A stretch of 63,700 nt of DNA, the filler included, from Basidiobolus ranarum (lineage: Eukaryota), in assembly GCA_040143965.1 (NCBI GenBank). It is 16 parts of 16 records of this genome, joined end to end, with 100 filler letters (N's around TTAATTAATTAA, not from the genome) between each part and the next. Parts side by side here need not be neighbours in the genome. Positions count along the whole stretch, not along the records: positions 4,004 to 7,906 come from JASJQH010009101.1; 15 more parts are not named here. One strand, 5' to 3'. Below the pieces are notes generated by a model. It was not told the origin of the DNA and did not search any database. It saw only the letters and a program-made list of their open reading frames with translations. Every line of letters starts with the position of its first letter. Positions within the stretch are counted from its first letter, which is position 1. The translations under genes were made by a program, and so were the position numbers. This document shows positions 2,393 through 62,233 of this stretch, piece after piece.

Positions 2393-3903
2393 TTATTGAT
2401 CACTATCCTTCTTCTTTTGTTCCTCTTGGTCTTCAAGCACAACCTCTTCATCTCCCACAGGAGCCATGTGCTTCTCTACTAAATTTTGCTCTTCCGTAGC
2501 AGTGGTACCTGGTTCATGGTTACGTACAACGACCAATTCGGTTTCACCGTTTGGTAATGTTTCAACAGTCACCTTTGCAGTTTCACCTGTACGTACACCA
2601 CCATCAATTAAAAGACGAGCTAAAGGATTCAACAGCTTCTTTTGAATAAGACGGTTCAAAGGACGTGCTCCATAAGCAGGGTCATAGCCGTGTTCACCTA
2701 ACCAATCTCTTGCTTCCATAGATACGTCTATCTTGATACGACGGTCAGCCGTTCTTTCCTCTACTTCTTTAACGCGAACATCCACAATATCACGTAAAGC
2801 CTTCTTCGAGAGACGGTTAAAGATGACCATCTCATCAATACGGTTGACAAACTCAGGAGCAAAAGCATGGCGAACAGCTTCCATGACATTTTGTTTGGCA
2901 CGAACGCTCACTTCGCCCTCCTTACTTACATCAGAAACAAGAGCTTCCGCACCCAAGTTGGAGGTCATAATAATAATTGTGTTTCTAAAGTCAATTTTTC
3001 TGCCCTTTGTATCGGTGAGAACACCATCGTCAAGGACTTGCAACAGGATGTTTGAGACGTCACGGTGAGCCTTTTCCATTTCATCCAAGAGGACAACAGC
3101 ATAAGGTCTGCGACGGACAGCTTCTGTAAGTTCGCCGCCTTCTTCATGGCCTACATAACCTGGAGGAGAGCCAATGAGCCGGCTTACACTGAACTTCTCC
3201 ATGTATTCGGACATATCCACACGCACAATAGCATTCTCGGTATCAAACAGGAATTTAGCAATTGTTTTACAAAGCTCTGTTTTACCAACACCTGTGGGAC
3301 CCAAGAACAGGAATGAAGCAATAGGTTTAGAAGGATTTTGGAGACCCGCACGGGAAAGACGAACAGCCTCTGCAACAGAACTGATGGCTTCATCTTGACC
3401 TACTACACGTTCAGACATTGCATCTTCCATATGCAGTAGTTTTTCTCTCTCTCCTTTAAGAAGATTACGAACAGGAATACCAGTCATGTGAGAAATGACT
3501 CTTGCGATATCATTACTTGTTACGCGCTCGTGGATCAATGAGGGCTGGTCAGGGTTCTCTTCTTCGGCAGATTTGTCCGTTGGTAAACTCTTTTCAAGGT
3601 TAGGAATTACACCATATCTAAGTTCAGAAGCTTTTTGGAAATTTCCAGAGCGTTGTGCCATGTCCAATTCTACGCGAGCCTTTTCCAAATCCTCTTTTAT
3701 CTTTTTGATTTCATTCAACTTTCCTCTTTCCATGTTCCAGATATTGCCAAGTTTCTCACTTTCCTTTTGCTTGTCTTCCAGCTCTTGTTGAAGCTTGTCT
3801 CGTCTTTCTATAGACATGACATCAGTTTCTTTACGTAACGACTCTAGCTCAATTTGAATTGTCATTATTTGACTGTCGAGTTTTTCAAGCGCTTCGGGTT
3901 TGG
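2393..3903 (-). CDS. HSP78: Hsp78/ClpB-type AAA+ disaggregase, C-terminal half (5'-truncated by contig end)
   Basis: Middle domain QIELESLRKETD, NBD2 Walker A GPTGVGKT, DMSEYMEKFSVSRLIGSPPGYVG, Walker B VVLLDEMEKAH and GARPLNR. The Hsp78 versus Hsp104 assignment is by resemblance only. Confidence 0.88.
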
Positions 3904-4003
3904 NNNNNNNNNNNNNNNNNNNNNNNNNNNNNNNNNNNNNNNNNNNNTTAATTAATTAANNNNNNNNNNNNNNNNNNNNNNNNNNNNNNNNNNNNNNNNN
4001 NNN
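3904..4003. other. Artificial contig-joining spacer (N44-TTAATTAATTAA-N44), first of 15
   Basis: Identical 100-nt spacers with six-frame stops at 3904, 7907, 11906, 15904, 19900, 23892, 27880, 31866, 35851, 39835, 43818, 47799, 51776, 55752 and 59727. Intervening contigs fall in length from about 3903 to about 3874 nt. Confidence 0.98.
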
Positions 4004-4695
4004 ACAGAGAGGCAAAAGCTTTATAATGACATTTTTTCCCATTTTAGAGCAAGAGTAGAACATAGCTTTGGTTTCCTAAAGAGATATAGCATTGTAGCAG
4101 GAAAGTATAGAGGAAAATCATTTTGTGGGCCTCAATCAAAGTTAGGCAAAGTAGTCAAAATCTTGATTAATTCTCAATACATCCATACTCAAAGATATCC
4201 ATAGAGAGCTCTAGACTTAAGACACTACAAATAAAGTTTCCATCATCTTTTGAATGTGCAAGAATGTCTAAAAGTACTTTTCTTAAATATACCATATAAG
4301 TAAAATAAACTGTTTCCAAAACAGTAAATAACATTGTGCCAGATAGCGCCCAATCATGCCAATTTGTGCTAGCACACTTTTTAGCTGGACTGATCTGGAT
4401 CAATAAAATGGAACAAGTCTATTAATTCAAATTCCTAGAGCAGTAAACCTAGTGAGTTGCTATTTGAAAATTATATTTTTGCAAAATTGCCGGATATTGA
4501 ATAACGCATGCCAAATTTGAGGATCAATATGTTAACATGTATGAATACCATCAAAATACTGTCAAGAAACTGCCATCACACCATCAAAATCCCTGGCAGA
4601 ATGCAAGCCACCAATATTGTGATGGTTCTCTGATAGTTTTGCTCTTTTGGAGAGTGGATCCAATCCAGATCAAATCAATTTTATTTTTGTTAGGG
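4004..4695 (-). mobile_element. End A and interior of a CCCTAAC-terminated repeat (putative DNA transposon) inserted in copia pol
   Basis: Minus strand reads copia GGG TAC ACA TTT C|CCCTAACAAAAATAA. The first ~112 nt align with 6106-6217. Repeated CCATCA/CTGTCA subterminal motifs. Confidence 0.65.
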
Positions 4696-4985
4696 GAAAT
4701 GTGTACCCAATTGTAGAACTCCAATCCTCATGGTCTCTTCCCTAGATGGCAACACTGTAGCCTTCAAGCTTTTGTGCATCAGAAGTATGAAAGTATTCAT
4801 GAACTATAACCATCATTCCTCTCAAATACCCAAATATTTGTTTTGCTGTAGTTTTGTGCCAAACTCTTGGATTTTTGGAAGGTTACCTAACAGTTCCCAT
4901 CTCCACAGCAATGTCTGGATGTGCACCATCCATTATATATGTTAAACTACCCACCATGGATTGATAAGGGAGCTCCTGCTTTGAC
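4696..4985 (-). pseudogene. Ty1/copia reverse transcriptase C-terminal / RNase H junction remnant
   Basis: Translates QELPYQSMVGSLTYIMDGAHPDIAVEMGTVR...KLEGYSVAI*GRDHEDWSSTIGYTF, matching copia PYxSxVGSLxY..RPDI and GYSDADWAGD..DRRSTxGYxF. Confidence 0.85.
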
Positions 4986-5039
4986 TTGTGCCATTTTGGG
5001 CCTAATTTGATGTAAATTTGATTAATTTTACATTGGGAT

Positions 5040-5470
5040 CTCAAGAGCTGGAGAAGACCAAGATTTTGACAAGGTAGATTTTCACCAACTGGTCAAGATA
5101 CTCTCTCTAATAAATATGCTCAAATGGTTGTTGTTTTCCTTCTTGTAGATCTATTGGGCAATCATATGGGTGGTGAGCTGGGAGTACATTGGATTTCTTC
5201 TTGTCAAAGACATTAGCAAAGGCTAAGTATTAGGGTTGGAGCTTGTGAACTATAGGTTTTGTTGGTTTCTGCTCATCAGCAATAATATCAGCAGATATTG
5301 GCTTCATAGATGTTTTTAGGAGTTGGGCTTTTGATGAGTTAGATACTTTGCAGGTTGGCAAATATGGATTAGGAGGTGGAGTTTGCTTGAATGTGCTAAT
5401 CTTTTTCTTCCAATTGATTACTGGATTGTGCTGCATGAGCTACAAGATACCAAGGATGACTGGGTGGTGA
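5040..5470 (-). pseudogene. Ty3/gypsy (Tf2/chromovirus-like) pol remnant, protease-RT linker
   Basis: LMQHNPVINWK (compare LGxPWLxxHNPxIDW) and FANVFDKKKSNVLPAHHPYDCPIDLQEGKQQPFEHIY (compare LPxHRPYDCxIDL). Confidence 0.75.
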
Positions 5471-5569
5471 GGTGAATGAGCTAGCTTTGGGGCAATTGGG
5501 ATAAGTTTGAAAGTTTCCATATGGAATTGCTAATTCTCACATTATTCACATATAAATACAATGTATGTT

Positions 5570-6105
5570 CCAAGTTGCAGTTAAGTGATATTTGACAAAG
5601 TAATGTTAACTGACTTATATGCAATTTATGAAATAGTTAGGTGTATAAAGATAGAGATAACAAATATGATAAATACAATAAACTTCAACACTCCCACTCA
5701 ACTAAATATTCATATATCTTAATCCAAACTTGAATCTTAATTCTTCAAATTTTGGCTTGGGTATGGTTTGGTAAGGATGTCAGCAATCATGTACTCACTT
5801 GGACAGTACTCTAGTTGGATATGCTTACTCTCAATAGCTTCCCTACCAAAGTGATGTTCAATGTCAATGTGCTTATGCTGGCACAAAATTTGGGATTTTT
5901 AGCTAAAGAAATACAACTTTAAGTGTCCTTGAAAATTTTGGTGAGTGAACTTTGAGAAATGCTCAAGTCTTAGAACAGTTTCCTTAACAACATAGCCTCC
6001 TTTATTGTATGTGATGCTGCCATGTACTCTGCTTGAGTTGTTGAAAGTGCTATGGTGGGTTGTTTCTTGCTATTCTGATATATGGCTGCTTCACTATGGA
6101 GAAAG
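5570..6105 (-). mobile_element. Copia RNase H remnant, polypurine tract and start of 3' LTR
   Basis: FLHSEAAIYQNSKKQPTIALSTTQAEYMAA...KHIDIEHHFGREAIESKHIQLEYCPSEYMIADILTK, then GAGTGGGAG|TGTTGAAG (PPT then LTR start) near 5690. LTR extent is approximate. Confidence 0.85.
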
Positions 6106-6217
6106 CCCTAACAAAAATAAATCAATTTGATCTTGATCAGATCCACCCTCCAAAATGGCAAAACTGTCAGAGAACCATCACAATATTGGTGGCTTGCATT
6201 GTGCCAGAGATTTTAAT
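6106..6217 (+). mobile_element. End B of CCCTAAC repeat (homologous to end A, opposite orientation relative to copia)
   Basis: CCCTAACAAAAATAAATCAATTTGATC... aligns with the reverse complement of 4583-4695. It abuts the copia Phe codon and is cut off by an LTR fragment. Confidence 0.7.
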
Positions 6218-6235
6218 CTATCACTATATATATAA

Positions 6236-7168
6236 TGACAGAATTGAGTGCTAAATAATAAGAATATGAATAAACTAACTACCAAATAATGAGTAGCTAT
6301 TTACCTAATTTCAACAATATTAATACTGAATATCTCAATCTATCTCAATAAGATATCTATCTCATTGCTTTCATATATACATATTGAGACTATTGCATGA
6401 GCAAATAGTCCAGTTTATAGAGGTACTCACTTTATGGCTATGGATTAAGTTTTGAATTAATAAGCATAAGAGACTTGTTCCATCAGACCAGGTCACTCAA
6501 TCCATCCCACTAACACACTATCTGGTTCAATCTATTAGTCCATGATCAGGTCCTAAAACATATGGTTTGACACTATAAGGAACATTACAGCACCATCCCA
6601 CCACAATTGGATATGCTAATTTTTTGGGAAATATTGTGACAGCTCACACCAAGTAACCCAATTTAGTATTGCCAAATCAAGATTTTGAGTACCTGGCAAT
6701 GTTGGTTCATTCCTAGTTTTGTTCAAATTAAGTAAATAGCAACTACTTATTTAGTAGCTATCCTATTCATATTTGTTTTATTTAGCACTCAATTTTAACA
6801 CTTGAAACATGTATTTATAGATAAAAGTGCTTATGGGACTTTTAAGTTTTTTGAACAAGATTTGGATTTGTGAATTAGAGACTTATGTTTTATTAAATAG
6901 AATAGGCCTATTTGTAGTTTACTATGAAATAGGACTATTGGACATGCTAAGATCATAACAAGCATGCCTGTAAAGCATGGGTAAATATTTCAAGTGAATT
7001 GGAGAAGTTTTAAGAAAAAAGTGATAATTGGTGAAAGTGATACATTTATTATTCAATCAATTAGAGCAATAAATTCATATTTTTGAATGGGAGAATTGGG
7101 TGCTAAGAAATCAGAATACAAATAAAGTAACTACTGAATAATCAGTTGCTAATAACCTAATTTCAAAA
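6236..7168. mobile_element. Cluster of copia LTR family B fragments (6236-6314 minus, ~6720-6800 plus, ~6965-7168 minus)
   Basis: Shared TGTTGAAATTAGG-type start and GAATTGAGTGCTAA/AATAAAGTAACTACTGAATA motifs, also seen at 57199-57550 and 58043-58248. Confidence 0.65.
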
Positions 7169-7199
7169 TTCCTGCTCAATTAAATATTTTGCATTTCTT

Positions 7200-7583
7200 G
7201 TAAACATTACTTAAACCTTAATAATTTGAATTTAGCTTTAACTAGAGGTTTGGTTAATATGTCAGCAATCTTTTCTTCAGCAGGGCAATACTCAAGCTAG
7301 TATCATTTCCTATTGCTTCTCTAACAATATGATGTTTAACATCAACAATCATTGTTCTTGCATGAAAAGCTGGGTTTATCAGCTAATGAAAAACATCTTT
7401 GATTATCTTCAAATACAGTAATATCACATTTTTGAATGTATCCTAAGTCTGAAAATAACTTCTTTAACAATCAAGCTTCTGGTGTAGTAGCAGAGGCAGC
7501 CATATACTCTGCATCCATAGTGGAAAGTGCTGTGGCTGGTTGCTTCTTACTATTGGAAGTTATGGCTCCTTTACCTTAAAGAA
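7200..7583 (-). pseudogene. Second, divergent copia RNase H remnant
   Basis: (F)L*GKGAITSNSKKQPATALSTMDAEYMAA...FHARTMIVDVKHHIVREAI...LEYCPAEEKIADILTKPL. Confidence 0.85.
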
Positions 7584-7906
7584 CCCTAACTGAAATTTGA
7601 GGATTGTTATCATAGGATAACCATCACAATTTTGATCCATTTAGGATTGACTGTTTACTTACTGTCATAAAATTGACTAGTTAGATTTGATTTTAATCAA
7701 TTTTTTCATTTTCAGGAGTGAAATTTGAAGATCTTGCAAATTAGTTGCACATGATTGGCTACAATCTCAGTGAACTATGGATCAACACTTGTGCAAAAAA
7801 CATAACTCAAATTTTATACAATTACCACTTGAATGCTAATTTGTCACCTTTGAAATCCCTAGTCTGTTTGATATATTCTCCTGAATATTTTTATAGAGTT
7901 CTTCAT
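7584..7906 (+). mobile_element. End C of CCCTAAC repeat (probably the opposite terminus, or a sister subfamily)
   Basis: CCCTAACTGAAATTTGAGGATT...AACCATCACAAT. Shares AAATTTGAGGAT (also at 4513) and AACCATCACAAT with end A, and abuts the same copia Phe codon. Confidence 0.55.
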
Positions 7907-9747
7907 NNNNNNNNNNNNNNNNNNNNNNNNNNNNNNNNNNNNNNNNNNNNTTAATTAATTAANNNNNNNNNNNNNNNNNNNNNNNNNNNNNNNNNNNNNN
8001 NNNNNNTAAAGAGTTGTCGTCGGGAAATGTGAGAACTGGTGAACCTCCAATGTGAGAGTAAACAAAGCTTCCATCAGTAAAGGTGGGTAACAGTAGACAC
8101 CAGACTAACGACCACAAAGCATAGTGAATGAACAAATTCCGCCAAGATTTAGAAGCAAGATGGTATAGTGGTATCTTGAGTAGGCGAGCTGCTTGATGAA
8201 TGATTTGGTGGGATTATCTGAAATCATTTTATATGATTCTACGTGTAATCACTGTCAACTGTGAGCTGGATGTCATGACAAACTCAATATGTGACATCTT
8301 CTGTGGAAGGTTCACAAGTAGTGCATTGAAAGTCATTCAGGTGATGGAAGATGCAGCGGCCTTTGTTATATTCCTATGTGAAGTATTTCTAGAATATCTT
8401 TGTGATACAGAAACAATATACACTAAGCGCGATTTTGTCCGGAATGGTCTAGCCAATTCAGTTGTATACTTACGGCTTAAATGAGATACAGGAAAGGTAA
8501 CCTTGCTAATAAATGCCGATTTTTACTGTTCTTCTACAACCGATTCATTTGTTCAAACTCAGTCTGTCAAGAGTCTGGGTTCTTCAATAAGTAATAGCCA
8601 TGGTGTAGCACGAACAATATAGGCTGATATTTGACAAGAACACTCCAAATCCTGTTGTAATGCTATGAAGATATCTGTATCTATACTTCAAACCTGTCTT
8701 CATAGATTAGCTATAGACATTGAAATTTGCGATCAGAACAGATCTGTACATCTAGATATTCCAGAAAGAGCTCTTTTGGACTCAACTATTATACTTACTA
8801 TCATAGCAACACAAAGAGCCGTCTTAGCCAGCCCAGAGTCAAGTAGTTGTCGTATTATTATTTTATTTACCTTCACGTGATCAAGAAGGAGACTATCCTC
8901 AAACCACTACCCATTATTGCAATCTAGCTCATGATGCGTAGATTCATGTTACCTTTATATTTTTAACTCACTTCAAGCACCAACTTGATGATGGTTATAT
9001 GGTGATAGTCCATTGATTCATGGATAGGAAATATTGTTGTATTACAATTTGGAATATGCAGCTGAGTTATTTAATTCTTCTTCGAAATCATGGAAAATGA
9101 TCCTCCAGAGCTGCAAAATGGATAAGAAGTAACTCGTTCTAATAATCTTATCAAGAAGCACCTCACGAGGTTCAGGATTCATTTGTTAAATTCTTTGTTT
9201 TGAATCGAGATAAATATGTTGGTTTAAGCTTGATTGAACTATTTTGAATGGGATTCTTGATGACAAAATGGAAAATAGAACTCGATTGAAAATACTTATA
9301 TCAATAGGAAAGTAAGACATTTGATGAAAAGTTAGAGTAGCTATGCTGCACAGTCAGGCTAAGCTACTGAACATATCAGATTGGCATAAATTGCTACTTC
9401 AACAAAAAAGTTGTATCAAATCCCGCCCTCTGGCCTGATTCCACCATTTGGTTAGCGGTTTACTGGTGGAGGTGGGGGTGGTGGTTGAGGTGGCAGCAGG
9501 GGGTCACCATCCCAATATTTTTGGTTGCCTTAGTCAATACTGAATCAGGGATTGACTTTCAATGATGGGTGTGGCAGATGCAAGTATATCAGATGAGGGT
9601 AGTGATAATGGTTTTGTGTATGAGTCTTTATTATCAGCACGCATAAAACCAAATATAATGCAACATTTGCAGAGAATTGGCAACCACTGAATTGGGTAAA
9701 TATGGCATATATATCATTGATGCCATGTCTCAAAATGTTGATGAAAC

Positions 9748-11505: not shown

Positions 11506-13829
11506 AATTGCTAGTTGTGTATGCTTTTTGTTCCTCTCTATGAATGGCATGTTGCTAATTCTAAGTGCTTTCAACCTGAGTGTATAAAAATTGACTAGGC
11601 AAAATAAAGTCCAGTGGCAGCTTACCACTTTACCAGTCACATATAGCTACTAGATTAAAGTGCCATTTAAATTAGATACGTATGAATGACTGTATTTACT
11701 TGTGAAATGAATGCCTCTGATGAAAGATAAAGATAATAATCAAATAATATAAAAATAGGTTGCAGTATTCTAGCTCAGCCATATGATATCTTCAGATTTA
11801 GGGGGATGATAAACACCAGAAGGTGTAATATTTATTTATCAATTTAAACAAAGTCAATAAATAAATAAGCCAAGTTAGAATATAATATTCAAAGATAAAG
11901 TCAAGNNNNNNNNNNNNNNNNNNNNNNNNNNNNNNNNNNNNNNNNNNNNTTAATTAATTAANNNNNNNNNNNNNNNNNNNNNNNNNNNNNNNNNNNNNNN
12001 NNNNNTTTACCGCGATAATAGTATGTGATTATACCAATAGTGACTAATATCCCAACGTGTTACCACTCACACTGAACACAGCTCGCTCTAATGTTCTCCC
12101 CGAACAAACATCTGGGCTATTGAAGATCAACCTTAAATTGTTCAATCCACCAATAAGTGGAAGTCTTTGCAATCTTTATAGTCAACTTTTAAAGTGGGCT
12201 ATTGATATGCCCAGATTTCCATCATGAACTAGAATAGGCCATTTGCATTGTTTAGTCAACTCCAAACCGAATGGTCTTTCTGTACACTGAATAACTTTGC
12301 ATTCCTGTGCTCAAAGATGAAAACTGACTTGTCATACACACTGTTATAGCAATAATTTCCAATTAAAGACATGCTAATACGTCAAATCCTTACCAGTATC
12401 ACTCATGTATTACTCGGCGTAGAAGCTCGCTTGTGAGAAGAATCTAGTGGGCCCCAACCTCAGGAAAGGCAATAAAACATCCGCACTCCTCGTGCAGATC
12501 GACACGAAGATCAATATCATAATTCATTTTCCAGTTGTGCATAATTGTAACGATAATGGAATTTTCAATCTAGAATAGAACAGAACACTATGCTACGACT
12601 TATTAAGGATCTCGTGGCGAGGTGTGCAGAGCCCAGTATGCCCATAGATAGTCGTAATTAGTATGCTAACCTTTCGGTCCGGGTTGCTAAACCCTATTTT
12701 AAACTGAATTAGTGTCTTCGCTGGGGTTTTTTCAGAATAACTAACTTTATCAGGCTCATACAATCTGGTATCCACTCCCATTGGCCAGCTACCTCACTAC
12801 TTAGCCTATTAACTCACTTGACATTTTTTTTCGCACCTGATTCAGTTTGTTTGTCCCGAAATTATCGGATATGTCATTTGTCGGTTTACTTTGTGGTTTA
12901 CATTCCTTCCAATCGCTCTCTGGCAAATCTTAAATGGAATGCTACCAAATATGGTAAGTTTCAGTATCTTAGTCAAACTCTATAATAACTCTGAGGATAT
13001 AATCACTGTTACACATGTCCATTCGTGCTGGCAGCTAAAATGCTCCTCTTTCCCATCAAATTCGATGGTTTCATTCAATATTGGGAATCAGTAAAGGCAC
13101 TATATAGTGTGATGCTCATGTTGTTAATGATAAACATTGGGCGTATTCCGATTTTGTAACAGCCTCCTACATTGCTTCTTATGCAACTGATTAGGATGAC
13201 TCATTCGACTAGTCGTTTGCAATACATAGATCAGCCAAACAATACATGCACTGGAATCTTAGTGTGCATTTCTCTGCAACGAAACAAACGCTAATATGTC
13301 TTTGAAGCAGGTACATGCCATTAGCACCCAGGCTTGTTAAAGAGTGACAAGTGTTCATTTAAATCCAGTATCCAGTAATTTTCTCTCGAAACTTGGGGCG
13401 AGGCCATGTTGTTGATTAGCAAACGAAGTGATAACTGTTCCAAACACAATAAAGTATACTCCAAATTCGAGATGATTCAAACTCCATATTTAGCAAAAGG
13501 ACTGAGCAGCGAGCAATTGTATTTACCGAAAAGATTAATGTAGACCAGGTATTGGCTGCAGAAGAGCTACGAGCCTGGAATCTAGAAATATAGCTACCGG
13601 TGATGGCCAATTATGTTGCAGGTTATTTCCCTCAGTATTTTGGTTGCTATTCGTCACACTTCATTACCACGACCATGGAAAGTATAAAATACTAGACAAC
13701 ACATGGAAATCACCAACAGTCTATTCACTGGTTTCGATTTAGAAAAATCCCTCGTTGTGAATCTCATCAGAGATATTTTAGCTTCCTCAAAAGAAGATAC
13801 CCTCATTTCCTATCAATTCGTCAGTTAAG

Positions 13830-15122
13830 ATGTCCGAAAACAACTCTACCACTCCCGACGAAAAGGAAATCTCCCACTTGGAATACAGCGTCACCACCAC
13901 AAATGAGAGAACTGGCTCATCTCTTGGCGCCTACTACAATATTGTGTCTATTATTGCTGGTACCGGTACACTTCAATTGCCTTACGCTCTAAAACAAGCT
14001 GGATGGACCGGCGCCATTGTGATTCTGATCGCTACCTTGATGGCCATTTATACCGGGCAACTTCTCATCAAATGCTTATACTATGATGGTGTCAATCGAC
14101 TTCCCGATTTCCCTGCTGTAGGTCAAGCTGCCTTTGGAAAGCCTGGAAAGTATTTCATTCGGGTCTTTCATTATTCTATTCTCCTTGGATGTACCTGCGT
14201 TTATGTCATGTTGATCGGGTACAATATCGACTTGCTCCTTAACCTAGTCGAAGTCAGTGTTGGCTTGAAAGCATGGATTGCCATTGGAGGTTGCATTGTC
14301 TTGATCCCGTATCTGTTTCTGAAAACTGTTAAGGAAGTTGCTTGGTTAAGTGCTATGGGTGTCTTAACTACTTGTTTGGTAATCATAATCAGTGTCATAG
14401 TCGGGTTGATCCAGTTGAAGTCTCAGGATCTCCACTACGATCACGACGTGGTTAACTGGTCCCAGCTACCAATTGCCCTCGGCTCAATCTGTTTCTCTTT
14501 CGGTGGGAATGTTATATACCCTCACGTAGAGGCAGGAATGCGCAATCCAAAGGCATGGAACAAAGTACTAACATGTGCCATTTTAACTGTTTGCTTCATG
14601 TATCTGTTGATCAGTATTCCTTGCTACTACGTATTTGGCGTTATCACCGAAAGTCCCATCTACAATAACCTAGAAACCGGAGGAGCTAAGATCGCAGCCA
14701 TCCTTCTGATCACCATTCATATTATCATGGCATCCCCACTGTACCTCACAAGCTTTGCTAACGAGATGGAAGAGATGCTAAAGATTGATAGACAACACCA
14801 TAGCAAAGCTCGGGAATTCATACTTCGCGCTATTCTGCGCACATTTATTCTCACGTGCATCACGCTAGTGGCTATGTTTGTTCCTATCGTGAGTGACTTT
14901 ATGTCGCTGATTGGTTCCTTGTCCTATTCCATCATTTTGTTTATGGCTCCAGTGGTGTTGTACATCAAGCTTTATGGATTCAAAAAGCTCGCCAAGTGGG
15001 AGGTGATTGTTTGTGCACTCATCATGATCATTGCCTTATGCGCTTGTATTCTTGGTACCAAAGATGCCATCATTCAATTCCAAAAGAGCATGAAGAACTT
15101 GAATGACAAGCCGAAACATTAG
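13830..15122 (+). CDS. Amino acid transporter (Aa_trans/AAAP family), intronless
   Basis: 430 aa with about 11 hydrophobic segments; GAYYNIVSIIAGTGTLQLPYA and FSFGGNVIYPHVEAGMRNP motifs. Confidence 0.92.
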   Translation: MSENNSTTPDEKEISHLEYSVTTTNERTGSSLGAYYNIVSIIAGTGTLQLPYALKQAGWTGAIVILIATLMAIYTGQLLIKCLYYDGVNRLPDFPAVGQAAFGKPGKYFIRVFHYSILLGCTCVYVMLIGYNIDLLLNLVEVSVGLKAWIAIGGCIVLIPYLFLKTVKEVAWLSAMGVLTTCLVIIISVIVGLIQLKSQDLHYDHDVVNWSQLPIALGSICFSFGGNVIYPHVEAGMRNPKAWNKVLTCAILTVCFMYLLISIPCYYVFGVITESPIYNNLETGGAKIAAILLITIHIIMASPLYLTSFANEMEEMLKIDRQHHSKAREFILRAILRTFILTCITLVAMFVPIVSDFMSLIGSLSYSIILFMAPVVLYIKLYGFKKLAKWEVIVCALIMIIALCACILGTKDAIIQFQKSMKNLNDKPKH

Positions 15123-32385: not shown

Positions 32386-33238
32386 TCATTTAGTGCCATT
32401 TGTTGCATCCTTCTTTCACATTTTAAAGAGTATCTAATCGTAGAATTCAAATAAACATGTCGTGTTTTGCAGTAATATCACAGGGTGACCTATAATTCCT
32501 TTATTAAATACACCATCGTGGTGGACCCATTACTATTGTTCCTGTGATATTAAAACTTATAGGTTGATTCCCACTTTACGAAAAAGCACTTGATGTTTTA
32601 GCCATATGGTTTTCTATATTTAACTTTATAACCATCCAAGAATGTCTTCCAACTTGACATTAGGTGAATTGAGAATTTTACTAGATTACCGAGTTTCGAT
32701 CAGTTTCAAATTATGCAATCTTTTAATTGGTAATATAATCTTCGTTTAGTGTTTTGGTGACACGTACATTCAAAGTGACGTATATGAAATCTCAATGGGT
32801 TCAGTTGTGAACACATTTGTAAGAACATGTGGGATACCAATAAATAGTACATCCAATAATGATTACTTACCTATTGGAGAATTATCATCAACATAAATGT
32901 TCCCTACGTAAGCCATAATAATATAATTCAAAACAAATGAGCAGTTGAAAAGTAAACAAATTGATCGAAAAGCATGAGTTCATATTAGGATTGAATTATT
33001 AAGTTACAGGTGTCAAACAAGAAGGTATTTGGAAGCCAATGATTTATTCTGATTACATACAATACATAGGACGAAAATAATGATATCTACAAGTGAGTTA
33101 ACAAGCTTGTAACCTACGAGTTGGGACGTCAATTAATGAATCCCCTGCGTGCTTGCTCTAGTCGAATTCTTGGATAATTCACCCGAGACAAACTAAACTC
33201 AAGCACCAGCCCTAACAAAGATCTCCACATGTGTAAAT

Positions 33239-34537
33239 CTAATGCTCCTCCAAAGCCCCAGGAATGTCCTTGAGATCGACATCAGTGAGGTCTTGAAGAG
33301 CTCCTCCAATGATCTGGATTCCTTCTCTGAGTTGTTCCTCGCTAATCACGAGTGGTGGTGCCAAACGAATGATATTCTCGTGTGTAGGTTTGGCCAAGAG
33401 TCCTCTCTCCTTCAAGAGGAGACATAAATGCCAGGCAGTCTTGGGGGCTGACTTCTCTTGATCAATCACGATGGCGTTTAACAAACCACGACCACGAACA
33501 CATGAGACAATGGGGGAGTTCAAGGCACGAAGTTCCTTACGGAAAATTTTACCAAGACGATCGGCACGCTCGACAAGTCCCTCCTCCTTGACAACCTCCA
33601 ATGCTGCCATGGCAACCGCACAACCAAGAGGGTTTCCACCATAGGTAGAACCATGCTCACCAGGCTTGATGCACAACATCACCTCCTTGTCAGCCAACAC
33701 TGCGGATACCGGGTAGACACCACCAGAGAGTGCCTTACCGAGTAATACCATGTCCGGGCGGACATTCTCATGATCAATAGCAAGCATAGCTCCAGTACGA
33801 GCAATACCAGTTTGGATCTCATCAGCGATGAAGAGGATATTGTGCTTCTTGCAAAGGTCGTAACATTTACGGAGATATCCCTCATCGGGAACCATGATAC
33901 CTGCTTCACCCTGGATTGGTTCGACAAGGAATGCGGCGATGTTCTCGGGTTGAGCCTCGATGGCTGCCTCCAAGTCTTCGTAGTTGTTGTAGCGGATCTC
34001 TCGACCAGTCTTCTGACAGAATGGTCCAACATTAGGAAGGTATGGCCCAAAGTCATTACGAGCATCAGGGTCGGTGGACATGGAGATGATTCCACAAGTA
34101 CGACCGTGGAAGTTGTTGCTGCATGAGAGAACGATGGCTTGATTGGTAGGGATCCCCTTCTTCATGTATCCCCATTTACGAGCAAGCTTGATTGCGGTCT
34201 CAACTGCTTCAGCTCCGGTGTTCATAGGGAGAACCATGTCGTATCCAAAGTACTCAGTGACATACTTGGCATATTCGCCAAACACATCGTTGTAGAAGGC
34301 GCGTGAACTGAGGCACACCTTTTGGGCTTGATCCACCAAGGCCTTGATGATCTTAGGGTGGCTGTGACCTTGATTGACTGCAGAGTAGGCTGAAAGGAAA
34401 TCGTAGTAACGCTTACCCTCGGGATCCCAAACGTACACTCCCTCAGCCTTGGAGAAGACCACAGGGAGTGGGTGATAGTTATGAGCACTGTGTTGGTGCT
34501 CAAGGTCGATAATTTGTTGGGAAGTGGAGATGGTCAT
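33239..34537 (-). CDS. CAR2: Ornithine aminotransferase, intronless, copy 1
   Basis: [51 protein letters not shown] and the PLP lysine in LGKALSGG. Confidence 0.96.
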
Positions 34538-34906
34538 AACAGATCAGTGATTTTTAAAGATGGTTATGAATTTACATGGTATTTATAATTTTGAATTGGT
34601 AATTTTTGATATTCGTACTATTTTAGTGGTCGACCAATAATAACATGGGCTCTACAGCTCTCTTACATATCGAACTGGTCCCTATCGGTAAAGTTTTTAT
34701 TCCAGAACATCTACAATTTAATATGGTAATAAAAATGAAATTCCAATGTATTCCATTTTTTAACACCTCCATTGAATCATCGAAATCATGTTTACGGTAT
34801 TTATGTCACAGCATTTCAGAAGCGCATCGGACCTCTTTCGGACCTGGATTTCAGAGAGTCCGAATAGGATTACGATCTCTCGGGCCCAGCACTGTTGCCT
34901 CATACT

Positions 34907-56690: not shown

Positions 56691-57198
56691 TGCTATGACT
56701 TACGACCAGCATGCCAAAACTACTGGTGTTGCAAAATACAGCAACTGTGAGATCCAATGGAAGATTGAAATATTGTATGAGTGAGATATAGATGATTGGC
56801 CTACATACACATGAATATCTTTGTTATGCAATTGATCAGGTAATTTACAATATGAGTTGTTTATGGTTATATGTTCAACAGTTGCTAAGTAACAAACCAG
56901 GGGATTAATTTGTATTGTCAGTTACCCAAAATCTTGATTCAGCAATACCAAATAGGGTAACTTGGTACAAGCTGGCAAAATATTTACAAAAAAATGATCA
57001 TATCCATTTGTGGTGAGATGGTGCCCTACTATTTATTACAGTGTCCAATCAGGTGTTATGGGAGCTCTCTATATTAAATCACCAATCATGGCAGATAGTA
57101 TGCTAGTGGGCTGCATCCAGCAACCCAATCCAACCAGGTGCAATGGAACAAGTCAATGCATGCTGTTGGTAGTTCCTTTAGTTTTGCAAAGATACTTC

Positions 57199-58248
57199 TG
57201 TTGAAATTAGGTAAATATAAACTCATTATTTAGTAGTTAGTTTATTGATACTCTGATAATTTAGTACTCAATTCTGTCTATCAAAAATGAGTGTTTATTG
57301 CTCTCACTGATAGAAATATCAATTAATTCACTTTTAACAATTTACATTAATTTCTCAAATGTTATCCAAGTCACCTCAAATTTTTACCCATCCTTAACAG
57401 GCATGTTTGTTATAATCTAAACATGTCCAAAAGTTCTATTTCATTGTTAACTATAAATAGGACATATTCAATTCAATAAAACTTAAGTGTCTAATTCACA
57501 AATCCAAATCTTGTCCAAAACACTTCTAAATCCCCTGGACACTTTTATCAGGTTATGAGCCCTGATATAGCTGTTAAAGGAATGCCTACCAGTACTATTA
57601 CCAATGTTTTTGCATACACAGAGCAGTTTGATGGTGAAGACTTTCACCTTTGGAAGTTCAAGATGCAAATGGTGCCAGAAGACAAGGACCTTTGGGGATT
57701 TGTTACAGCAGTAGATATTGAGTAAAAGGGACCACCAGAAGCTATCATTGCCTTTCACAAGAAGCAGATGAAAGCACTCTCTTTACTTTGTCTACATCTC
57801 CGAGACCCTCTATTGAGACAAATACAATAAGCCAAAAACATCCAAAATGCTTGGGAAAAACTTGAGGGACTATACAAAACTAAAGATCATGCATACAGGC
57901 TATGTATTAGGCTAAAGTTACTCTTAATTCAGATTCATTCTGATGAATCTATGCTTACTCATATATTTCAGATAAAAACTATGGCAGATCAGCTCTCATC
58001 TATTGGAGCACCTCTAAATGAAGATGACTTAGTCATAAATAAAATGCCTGTTAAGCATGGGTGAAAATATGAGGTGATTTGGATGAGTTTTGAGAAAATA
58101 GTGAATATTGGTAAAGTGTTCTAACTGATATTTCTATCAATTAGGGCAATAAACACACATTCTTGAATGGCAGAACTGAGTGCTAAATAATCACAATATG
58201 AATAAAGTAACTACTGAATAAAGAGTTGCCATTAACCTAACTTCAACA
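57199..58248 (+). mobile_element. Copia family B 5' LTR (57199-57550), PBS, degenerate gag, interrupted by an inverted LTR fragment (58043-58248)
   Basis: TGTTGAAATTAGG...TATCA|GGTTATGAGCCCTG; gag EQFDGEDFHLWKFKMQM..DKDLW, AWEKLEGLY and QLSSIGAPLNEDDLV. Confidence 0.85.
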
Positions 58249-58554
58249 AAACCAAAGACCATGCAATATGCAGAAGGTTCTTGACTTGTTCAATGTGGAA
58301 TAATCTGGATTTTTACAAGCCAAAGGCAATTGGGCTAGTATAGGCCTATTCCATTGAATGTCAACAAAATGTTTGTAATTATCCACTTGGAGAGGAAAGA
58401 AAAACAGCTAAAGCTGTACCAAGAAACAAGAAGTGAATAAACCTAAGTCCCACCTGTCAATTGCTTCTCACCATTTCTGAGGCCAGCATTTTTTGAGTCA
58501 GACATATCAGCAGATACAATGTGAAAAAAGCTTGATCTTACAAGGTAACCACTA

Positions 58555-61481: not shown

Positions 61482-62233
61482 ATGGTCAGTATTTCAATGT
61501 TTTATTAATAATCTCCACTTTAACATGCTGGCGGTATCACCTCATCGTAAGTTTTAGTGGCTGGAGTGTGGTCGAACCTATACCACAGGAAGCATACCTT
61601 ACGATGGATGAATCGACTATATGAATACGATTAATGGTGGAATTTCCTACTAAACTGAACTTGATGTTCCTATTTTAGGGTATCGACATTAAGAAACATC
61701 ATGTCAAGAAGGGCACCAGAACTGAGCCTGGTAGCCAGGATGTCTACCTTCGTTTGTTGGTGAAGTTGTATCGTTTCCTTGCCCGTCGTACTGACGCCAG
61801 CTTCAATAAGGTTATCTTGAAGCGTCTCTTTATGTCCCGCGTCAACCGTCCCCCTCTTTCCATCTCTCGTTTGGCTCGTTATGTCCGTGGCAAGGAAGGC
61901 AAGATTGCTGTTGTTGTTGGTACTGTTACTGATGATGAACGTCTATTGGAGGTTCCTAAACTCTCTATTTGTGCCCTCCGTGTCACCAAGACCGCTCGTG
62001 CCAGAATTCTCAAGGCCGGTGGTGAAATCATCACTTTCGATCAATTGGCTCTTCGTGCTCCTACTGGTGCTAACACCATTCTCTTGAGAGGTCCTAAGAA
62101 CTCTCGTGAGGCTGTTAAGCACTTTGGTGCCGCTGGTGTTCCCAATGGTCATGCCAAACCTTATGTTCGTTCCAAGGGACGTAAGTTTGAACGTGCTAGA
62201 GGTCGTCGTGCTAGTCGTGGTTACAAGAACTAG
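61482..62233 (+). CDS. RPL18: 60S ribosomal protein L18 (eL18); ATG-only exon 1, intron 61485-61678
   Basis: ATG|GTCAGT...TTTTAG|GGT ATC GAC gives [30 protein letters not shown] and [14 protein letters not shown]; pyrimidine tract upstream. Confidence 0.96.

Follow-up and report, generated by a model that had tools for sequence, protein, structure and literature searches.

The window analysed here, a stretch of 63,700 nucleotides (nt) of DNA from Basidiobolus ranarum (GenBank assembly GCA_040143965.1), consists of 16 contigs of about 3.9 kb each, sorted by falling size and separated by N44-TTAATTAATTAA-N44 spacers (3904-4003, 7907-8006 and so on); the order of the contigs in the window does not correspond to their neighbourhood in the genome. 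One of them, a 3.9-kb contig at positions 4004-7906 (JASJQH010009101.1), carries three fragments of the pol gene of Ty1/copia retrotransposons which all break off at the same conserved motif, and each of these fragments abuts, at its break, a sequence beginning with the heptamer CCCTAAC. We refer to the copia fragments as A, B and C, and to the adjoining CCCTAAC-ended sequences as X_A, X_B and X_C, or collectively as X (Table 1). The three junctions, all of them located in this single 3.9-kb contig, suggest that a transposon prefers one particular spot of copia pol for its insertion. For the present study the contig was compared with the other 15 contigs of the window, with protein collections and with the published literature.

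CCCTAAC is found at 4689-4695 on the minus strand, at 6106-6112 and 7584-7590 on the plus strand, and once more at 33210. These four occurrences are close to the 4.72 expected for the window, where the heptamer is therefore not enriched, and it is its position, rather than its number, that matters. Next to each of the three copies in the contig, the minus strand reads copia pol. The translation of A (...LEGYSVAI*GRDHEDWSSTIGYTF) ends in ..STIGYTF plus one base, the translation of B starts with FLHSEAAIYQNSKKQPTIALSTTQAEYMAAS..., and the translation of C starts with L*GKGAITSNSKKQPATALSTMDAEYMAAS.... In terms of nucleotides, copia sequence extends one base beyond the phenylalanine (F) codon in A (junction at 4696), begins one base ahead of the F codon in B (6105), and begins one base into the F codon in C (7583), 2 nt after the start of B. 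When A, B and C were aligned with the C-termini of five copia pol proteins using MAFFT, the end of A and the start of B fell on the same F column of the GY.F motif, with the start of C on the next column. The same junction columns were obtained by tblastn with P0001, a copia pol fragment of the moss Ceratodon purpureus which is labelled as a hypothetical protein in its source and was the only named relative found. The C-terminus of P0001 matched both B (E=6.5e-29) and C (E=8.3e-22), the match with B starting at residue F77, equivalent to position 6104. The pairwise BLASTP comparison between A and P0001 was non-significant (E=0.20), yet its last aligned residue is the same F.

The original prediction, which had been made from the sequence alone, described three copia fragments cut at the GY.F motif. 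Both alignment approaches agree with it, and its base-level description of the three junctions proved correct. The site had been placed near the boundary between reverse transcriptase (RT) and RNase H, and in this respect the description needs to be amended, as the MAFFT alignment locates it within RNase H itself, where the reference proteins have the DADWAGD block on one side and the STTEAEY block on the other. A fourth, divergent and degenerate copia RNase H region, found in another contig (approximately 39170-39675, minus strand), is uninterrupted at the homologous codon, where it reads ..IIGYMVACCNEAISWNSKKK... The heptamer was also considered as native copia sequence, a possibility that was rejected: X_A bears the same 16 terminal bases beside the other copia half, and reading the heptamer as the GY. 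codons would give a stop at the tyrosine codon in B and C.

The nature of the interrupted sequences was assessed with fragment A, which was translated with the letter X in place of its two stop codons and compared by phmmer with 1.84 billion representative proteins. At a cut-off of E<=1e-3, 619 proteins were matched, many of them 1000-1600 residues long and aligned up to the last residue of A (query residue 104). Five of the 150 listed matches were subjected to a Pfam scan; four of these contain Retrotran_gag_2, gag_pre-integrs, rve and RVT_2 in this order, and the fifth contains the last three. Judged by this homology with complete polyproteins, the interrupted fragments are Ty1/copia pol. 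The copia pieces themselves gave no match to Pfam, because they lie beyond RVT_2.

X_A and X_B are inverted copies of each other, as had been anticipated, with 88.5% identity over 113 nt in the blastn alignment (87% over 105 nt in the repeat search). They are identical in their first 16 nt and in an inner stretch of 34 nt (4600-4633 and 6167-6200), the sole exact repeat of at least 20 nt in the contig. The likeness of X_C to these two sequences is of another kind. Its overall identity with them (53-54%) is hardly distinguishable from that of 500 random 121-mers drawn from the window (50 +/- 2.4%, maximum 59%), whereas its local alignment scores of 28-29 exceed those of control segments (16.3 +/- 2.5) and were matched by only 1 of 2000 controls in the case of X_B and by 4 of 2000 in the case of X_A. 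What X_C has in common with X_A and X_B is CCCTAAC itself, 11 of the first 13 nt, and a motif conserved in 17 of 19 nt (7608-7626) around AACCATCACAAT. A short common end followed by a common subterminal motif, with all the rest different, is the pattern displayed by the two ends of one element with short terminal inverted repeats (TIRs), and the 11/13 match qualifies as an inverted repeat only on condition that X_C represents the opposite end of this family. This pattern agrees with the earlier suggestion that A and C carry opposite termini; taken as a whole, X_C is not alignable to X_A and X_B. Furthermore, the hexamer CCATCA occurs nine times in the contig (eight times on the plus strand and once on the minus strand), and six of the nine copies belong to X_A, X_B or X_C or are adjacent to them, with both strands represented.

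In the remainder of the window X was not recovered, since blastn returned X_A and X_B only. The decamer at 33210-33219 (CCCTAACAAA), just past the open reading frame (ORF) of a class-III aminotransferase, equals the first 10 nt of X_A and X_B; it shows no further likeness to them and is probably due to chance. A 71-residue open frame running through X_A into copia had no match among proteins of 39-125 residues in a word-based search, and the 21-nt core of X had no exact match in metagenome contigs. An origin of X as an RNA-derived element was rejected, given that neither an Rfam match at E<=1 nor a tRNA was detected.

As X_A and X_B represent the same end facing opposite copia halves, they would derive from insertions in opposite orientations, unless the inverted repeats of the element exceed 113 nt, in which case the argument fails. 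We infer that C would bear a 5'-type end and A a 3'-type end, as found at either side of insertions that share one orientation, and that B, with a 3'-type end where C has a 5'-type end, would stem from an element inserted the other way round, at a distance of 2 nt. At the same copia site, the flanks of A and C overlap by three bases (GAA when read on the plus strand, or TTC in copia sense); both this overlap and the 2-nt offset of B are as originally described. A target duplication of 3 bp would thus read TTC (copia sense) for A and C, and CTT for B. A duplication of 5 bp also fits, the flanks of A and B overlapping in four of the five bases and C lacking two of them.

Recurrent junctions of this kind could also reflect shared ancestry, if one or two old copia-plus-X composites had been multiplied by segmental duplication, trans-mobilised retrotransposition, gene conversion or recombination. 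Several features of the contig would be in line with such a history: no more than 3 kb separates the three junctions, B and C are built alike (an X end, then RNase H, then the end of pol) and point the same way, the alignment of B with C continues for 13 nt into X, A has no copia sequence in common with B or C, and X_A and X_B are 88% alike. The pattern of divergence between the copia parts of B and C, however, argues against it. They are 66.5% identical over 438 nt (blastn), and their mismatches amount to 27/96, 18/97 and 45/95 at the first, second and third codon positions, respectively (0.28, 0.19 and 0.47; chi-square p=0.0014). This excess at third positions indicates a divergence under purifying selection, accumulated largely while both sequences were still coding, which would be impossible for a pol gene already broken by X. 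In addition, the difference of 19% at second positions (a Jukes-Cantor distance of 0.21) limits how much decay can have occurred after the death of either copy. Had the common ancestor of B and C already carried X, X_B and X_C would therefore be expected to be at least about 80% alike, but their likeness is near random in spite of flanks whose second positions are 81% identical.

The possibility that X_B and X_C are copies of one insertion was rejected on the basis of the codon-position pattern together with this near-random likeness, and B and C are separate insertions into two copia lineages. Two more points speak against shared ancestry, namely that X_A and X_B face opposite copia halves and that the junctions are 2 nt apart. 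Overall, we consider a common descent of the junctions unlikely, although not to the extent of the other rival explanations discussed below. The copia remnants beside X_B and X_C had been described as divergent, which the codon-position pattern substantiates, and the three junctions had been taken as independent events. The latter view holds for B and C, and is less secure for A, which has no copia overlap with the others. The contig breaks off within X_A on the left and within X_C on the right, so that A and C cannot be one insertion, again as predicted; for A, the case for independence consists of the orientation argument and the contig order.

The minimum is thus two independent events within 2 nt of each other. 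With random insertion, the odds of a second hit in a 5-nt window are estimated at about 1 in 1000, assuming a copia element of about 5 kb, and a third independent event would multiply these odds by the same factor. The junction pattern is real and not due to chance.

Independent hits are not the only way in which copia fragments could come to end at the same codon. If copia had a break point at this position, either a strong stop or a fragile site, complementary DNA or genomic fragments with fixed ends could have been end-joined to cleaved transposon ends. This scenario would be compatible with the use of the exact X end at every junction, with a wobble of 2 nt such as end-joining produces, and with the occurrence of both upstream (A) and downstream (B, C) halves. 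It requires, however, three rare captures at the ends of one family, and to our knowledge no copia intermediate ends at this site. Reading the sequence directly upstream of the site, we saw no purine-rich tract, as a central primer site would need, and a central polypurine tract at the site itself was discarded as a candidate, none being visible in the sequence. A break point in copia appears to us quite improbable.

The junctions could, on the other hand, owe their existence to the assembly, the contig being a chimeric path through repeats in which the order of the pieces or some of the junctions are unreal. The contig is indeed short, the assembly is very fragmented, and X_A and X_B share the 34-nt exact inverted repeat mentioned above. 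Nevertheless, the contig has no further exact repeat of at least 20 nt, B and C do not have a single 14-mer in common, the X copies show differences to the left and to the right of the 34-mer, the junctions are located about 60 nt away from it, and an identity of 7 nt cannot create a false join. An artefact of assembly is accordingly judged improbable.

Regarding the identity of X, the end of an open frame at the left edge of the contig (66 residues; Table 1) matches the Pfam family PF13359 (DDE_Tnp_4) with E=2.8e-4 and 21 bits, below the cut-off of 24.8 bits. Residues 1-54 align to positions 103-153 of the 158 positions of the profile, and the runner-up is DDE_Tnp_1 (E=0.048). The transposase frame points toward X_A and stops 494 nt before its CCCTAAC end. 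The earlier assignment of X to the DNA transposons draws support from this remnant and from the CCATCA-type motifs near the ends, and is tempered by the score of the transposase match. X probably represents the terminus of a DNA transposon, whose superfamily would most likely be PIF/Harbinger (PHIS), to go by the transposase trace. Of the element, the contig contains about 690 nt next to A and 323 nt next to C, and neither a complete transposase nor the second gene of the superfamily, the Myb-like ORF1, was seen in this partial element.

X could alternatively stem from another superfamily with short target duplications, for instance a CACTA-like one, the DDE_Tnp_4 remnant then belonging to an unrelated neighbouring fragment, as is conceivable in a contig of such mosaic structure. 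The terminus of X, CCCTA.CAAAAA, is similar to those of CACTA elements, and a 3-bp duplication of no fixed sequence, together with subterminal repeats in both orientations, fits the anatomy of CACTA elements. Nonetheless, the end reads CCCTAAC, that is, CCCTA and not CACTA; no coding sequence of the Tnp2 type, as in CACTA/EnSpm elements, was matched among the nine ORFs of the contig (out of 58 listed) that were scanned with Pfam; and the sole transposase trace is DDE_Tnp_4. Such an origin, which we regard as very improbable, alters the name of X and not its targeting.

The explanation that we favour, with slightly better than even confidence, is a PIF/Harbinger-like transposon whose preference for a long target matches the conserved RNase H motif of copia. 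According to this model, X would be the end of a cut-and-paste element with a short TIR of about 13 nt starting from CCCTAAC, and the subterminal AACCATCACAAT-type motifs would represent putative binding sites. The transposition machinery would favour a target longer than the duplicated bases, and this target would coincide with the stretch of Ty1/copia pol that codes for the conserved GY.F/.L..G motif of RNase H. Numerous copia copies that keep the motif would then permit repeated landing, in either orientation and in different copia lineages, with small shifts of position where the copia sequence differs. Recognition of the target would be based on its sequence, and the preference would extend genome-wide. 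If X is indeed a PIF/Harbinger element, the known long target preference of this superfamily makes the mechanism less exotic than proposed earlier. Concerning a PIF/Harbinger-like lineage specialised on a fixed site of 2-5 nt in copia RNase H, across divergent copia lineages and in both orientations, our confidence is somewhat lower than even, and we put it forward as a tentative proposal.

A number of observations weigh against a PIF/Harbinger-like element with such a preference. The three junctions all come from one 3.9-kb contig in a scrambled transposon nest, and hence from one locus, and the 34-nt exact stretch shared by X_A and X_B could let a k-mer assembler swap the sequence beyond it. 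The flanks of A and B have no overlapping copia sequence, so A may be of common descent with B or C. The score of the transposase match falls short of the Pfam cut-off, the match covers 54 residues only, its continuity with X_A is assumed, and the remnant had no relative in a word-based search of a large protein collection. None of the insertions displays both ends, hence the duplicated bases are deduced, and TTC/CTT would be an unusual duplication for PIF/Harbinger, for which TWA is the usual one; the length of 3 bp fits, the sequence does not. In the mPing assay, the duplication is TTA (PMC2836001). Finally, the junctions may be parsed in another way, with CCC and TAA as host target plus duplication and the element starting one base later. 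Work on Spy has shown that bases common to all junctions can be host target and not element ends (PMC4122938), and the same caveat applies to the CCCTAA of X. This parsing is less likely, because it would put the sites of A and of B and C about 15 nt apart and would require the tyrosine codon to be a stop in each of two independent copia lineages.

Extended target preferences have been described in the PIF/Harbinger superfamily. According to one study, they comprise 9 bp in plants and 15 bp in vertebrates and are determined by proteins of the element itself (PMC2836001), and another study calls Harbinger3_DR 'highly specialized' for one 15-nt consensus (PMC3016246). With maize PIF, rice mPing/Ping/Pong and zebrafish Harbinger3_DR, X would share a DDE_Tnp_4-type transposase, of which it would hold a trace, short inverted ends, a short (for X, probably 3-bp) duplication and repeated insertion at one sequence in both orientations. 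X differs from them in the inferred duplication, TTC/CTT instead of TTA/TAA, and in the location of its preferred site within the coding sequence of a different transposable element. On visual inspection of the flanks at hand, the site showed no evident palindrome. Among the other PHIS groups, Spy inserts between AAA and TTT without duplication, and the duplications of ISL2EU are 2 bp long (PMC4122938). Both have related transposases and strict short target motifs, and the flanks of X fit neither of them.

Pokey, a piggyBac element using TTAA, and Dada are comparable to X as DNA transposons sitting at a fixed position of a conserved multicopy sequence. According to one study, Dada targets small RNA genes, and Pokey prefers 28S ribosomal DNA but also inserts elsewhere (PMC3706591). 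In contrast to these host RNA genes, the target of X is a retrotransposon gene. The partial element moreover gives no sign of a Dada-type transposase or of duplications of 6-7 bp, the flank overlaps being 3-5 nt, and the contig is devoid of tRNA or Rfam matches. Specialisation on a site inside another repeated element is known for mobile elements such as Tx1L in Tx1D of Xenopus and other site-specific retrotransposons without long terminal repeats (non-LTR elements). Tx1L thus resembles X in aiming at another mobile element; the group to which it belongs, however, consists of non-LTR retrotransposons with their own endonuclease, whereas X would be a DNA element with TIRs. LTR retrotransposons of plants nest non-randomly in defined regions of other elements (PMC6911290). 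There, LTR elements insert into broad regions of LTR elements, unlike a DNA transposon inserting at one codon. What sets X apart from Dada, Pokey and Tx1L is that it is found in the part of copia pol which codes for RNase H. Searches of open-access full text on target-specific or nested insertion listed no DNA transposon that is bound to one position of copia pol.

Table 1. Features of the contig at positions 4004-7906 of the window
Feature	Position	Strand	Evidence and remarks
Putative C-terminal remnant of a DDE_Tnp_4 (PIF/Harbinger/IS5-type) transposase	4004-4201	+	PF13359; cut by the contig start, ends in a stop codon
Presumed 3' subterminal region of the transposon	4202-4582	+	CCATCA at 4548, 4573 and 4581; presumed continuous with X_A
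X_A, terminal 113 nt of the element, abutting A; CCCTAAC comes first when read from outside in	4583-4695	-	blastn against X_B
Copia fragment A, the part of pol lying between RVT_2 and the middle of RNase H, with two stop codons	4696-5008	-	phmmer, MAFFT
Putative Ty3/gypsy protease end and RT start, between copia B and A	5032-5640	-	Motif resemblance only
Copia fragment B, beginning in RNase H at the F of GY.F and extending to the pol end, with one frameshift and several stops	5681-6105	-	tblastn, MAFFT
X_B, same end as X_A in opposite orientation; breaks off after about 112-120 nt, where repeat Y starts	6106-6217	+	
Repeat Y, units 6212-6330 (+), 6706-6826 (-) and 7086-7166 (+)	6212-7166		find_repeats-type repeat search and blastn
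Copia fragment C, RNase H from inside the F codon to the pol end, of a copia lineage other than that of B	7159-7583	-	
X_C, CCCTAAC-ended, running to the contig end; candidate other end of the same family, or second subfamily	7584-7906	+	

The contig as a whole is a scrambled nest, or mosaic, of transposon fragments. Repeat Y, a candidate LTR or miniature inverted-repeat element (MITE), begins at the end of the X_B homology and stops at the end of copia C, and copies of it that are 75-89% alike are present in another contig (55852-59726), at 56914-57549 and 58033-58252. The stretch between copia B and A, which by its motifs presumably covers the last part of a Ty3/gypsy protease and the first part of the RT, runs in one frame with eight stops, and a Pfam scan of it gave no match. 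The window is AT-rich (33-40% G+C) and includes eukaryotic genes, among them those for ribosomal protein L18 and a PPR protein. Long uninterrupted ORFs are located at 2396-3901 (minus strand), 13782-15119 (plus), 33242-34543 (minus) and 61679-62230 (plus), with a ClpB-type AAA protein, an Aa_trans protein, a class-III aminotransferase and ribosomal protein L18 as their respective products. Their lack of introns would be unexpected in the genome of a land plant, the kind of source hinted at by the moss relative P0001.

Strictly site-specific DNA transposons are rare. If a PIF/Harbinger-like transposon does prefer this one codon of copia, the habitual landing site of a cut-and-paste transposon would be another class of mobile element, which would serve as a safe haven for the transposon and would be inactivated incidentally by its arrival. 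The roles of hyperparasite in a safe haven and of anti-retrotransposon agent, both proposed earlier, are compatible with the model as a matter of speculation, the latter drawing no support from the contig. The model would also imply that recurrent identical junctions in transposon nests need not be the outcome of duplication. Such a lineage would be a clear case of one mobile element acting as the landing pad of another, and it would provide a natural example of the choice of a long target sequence by the two-protein PIF/Harbinger system, open to yeast and plant assays.

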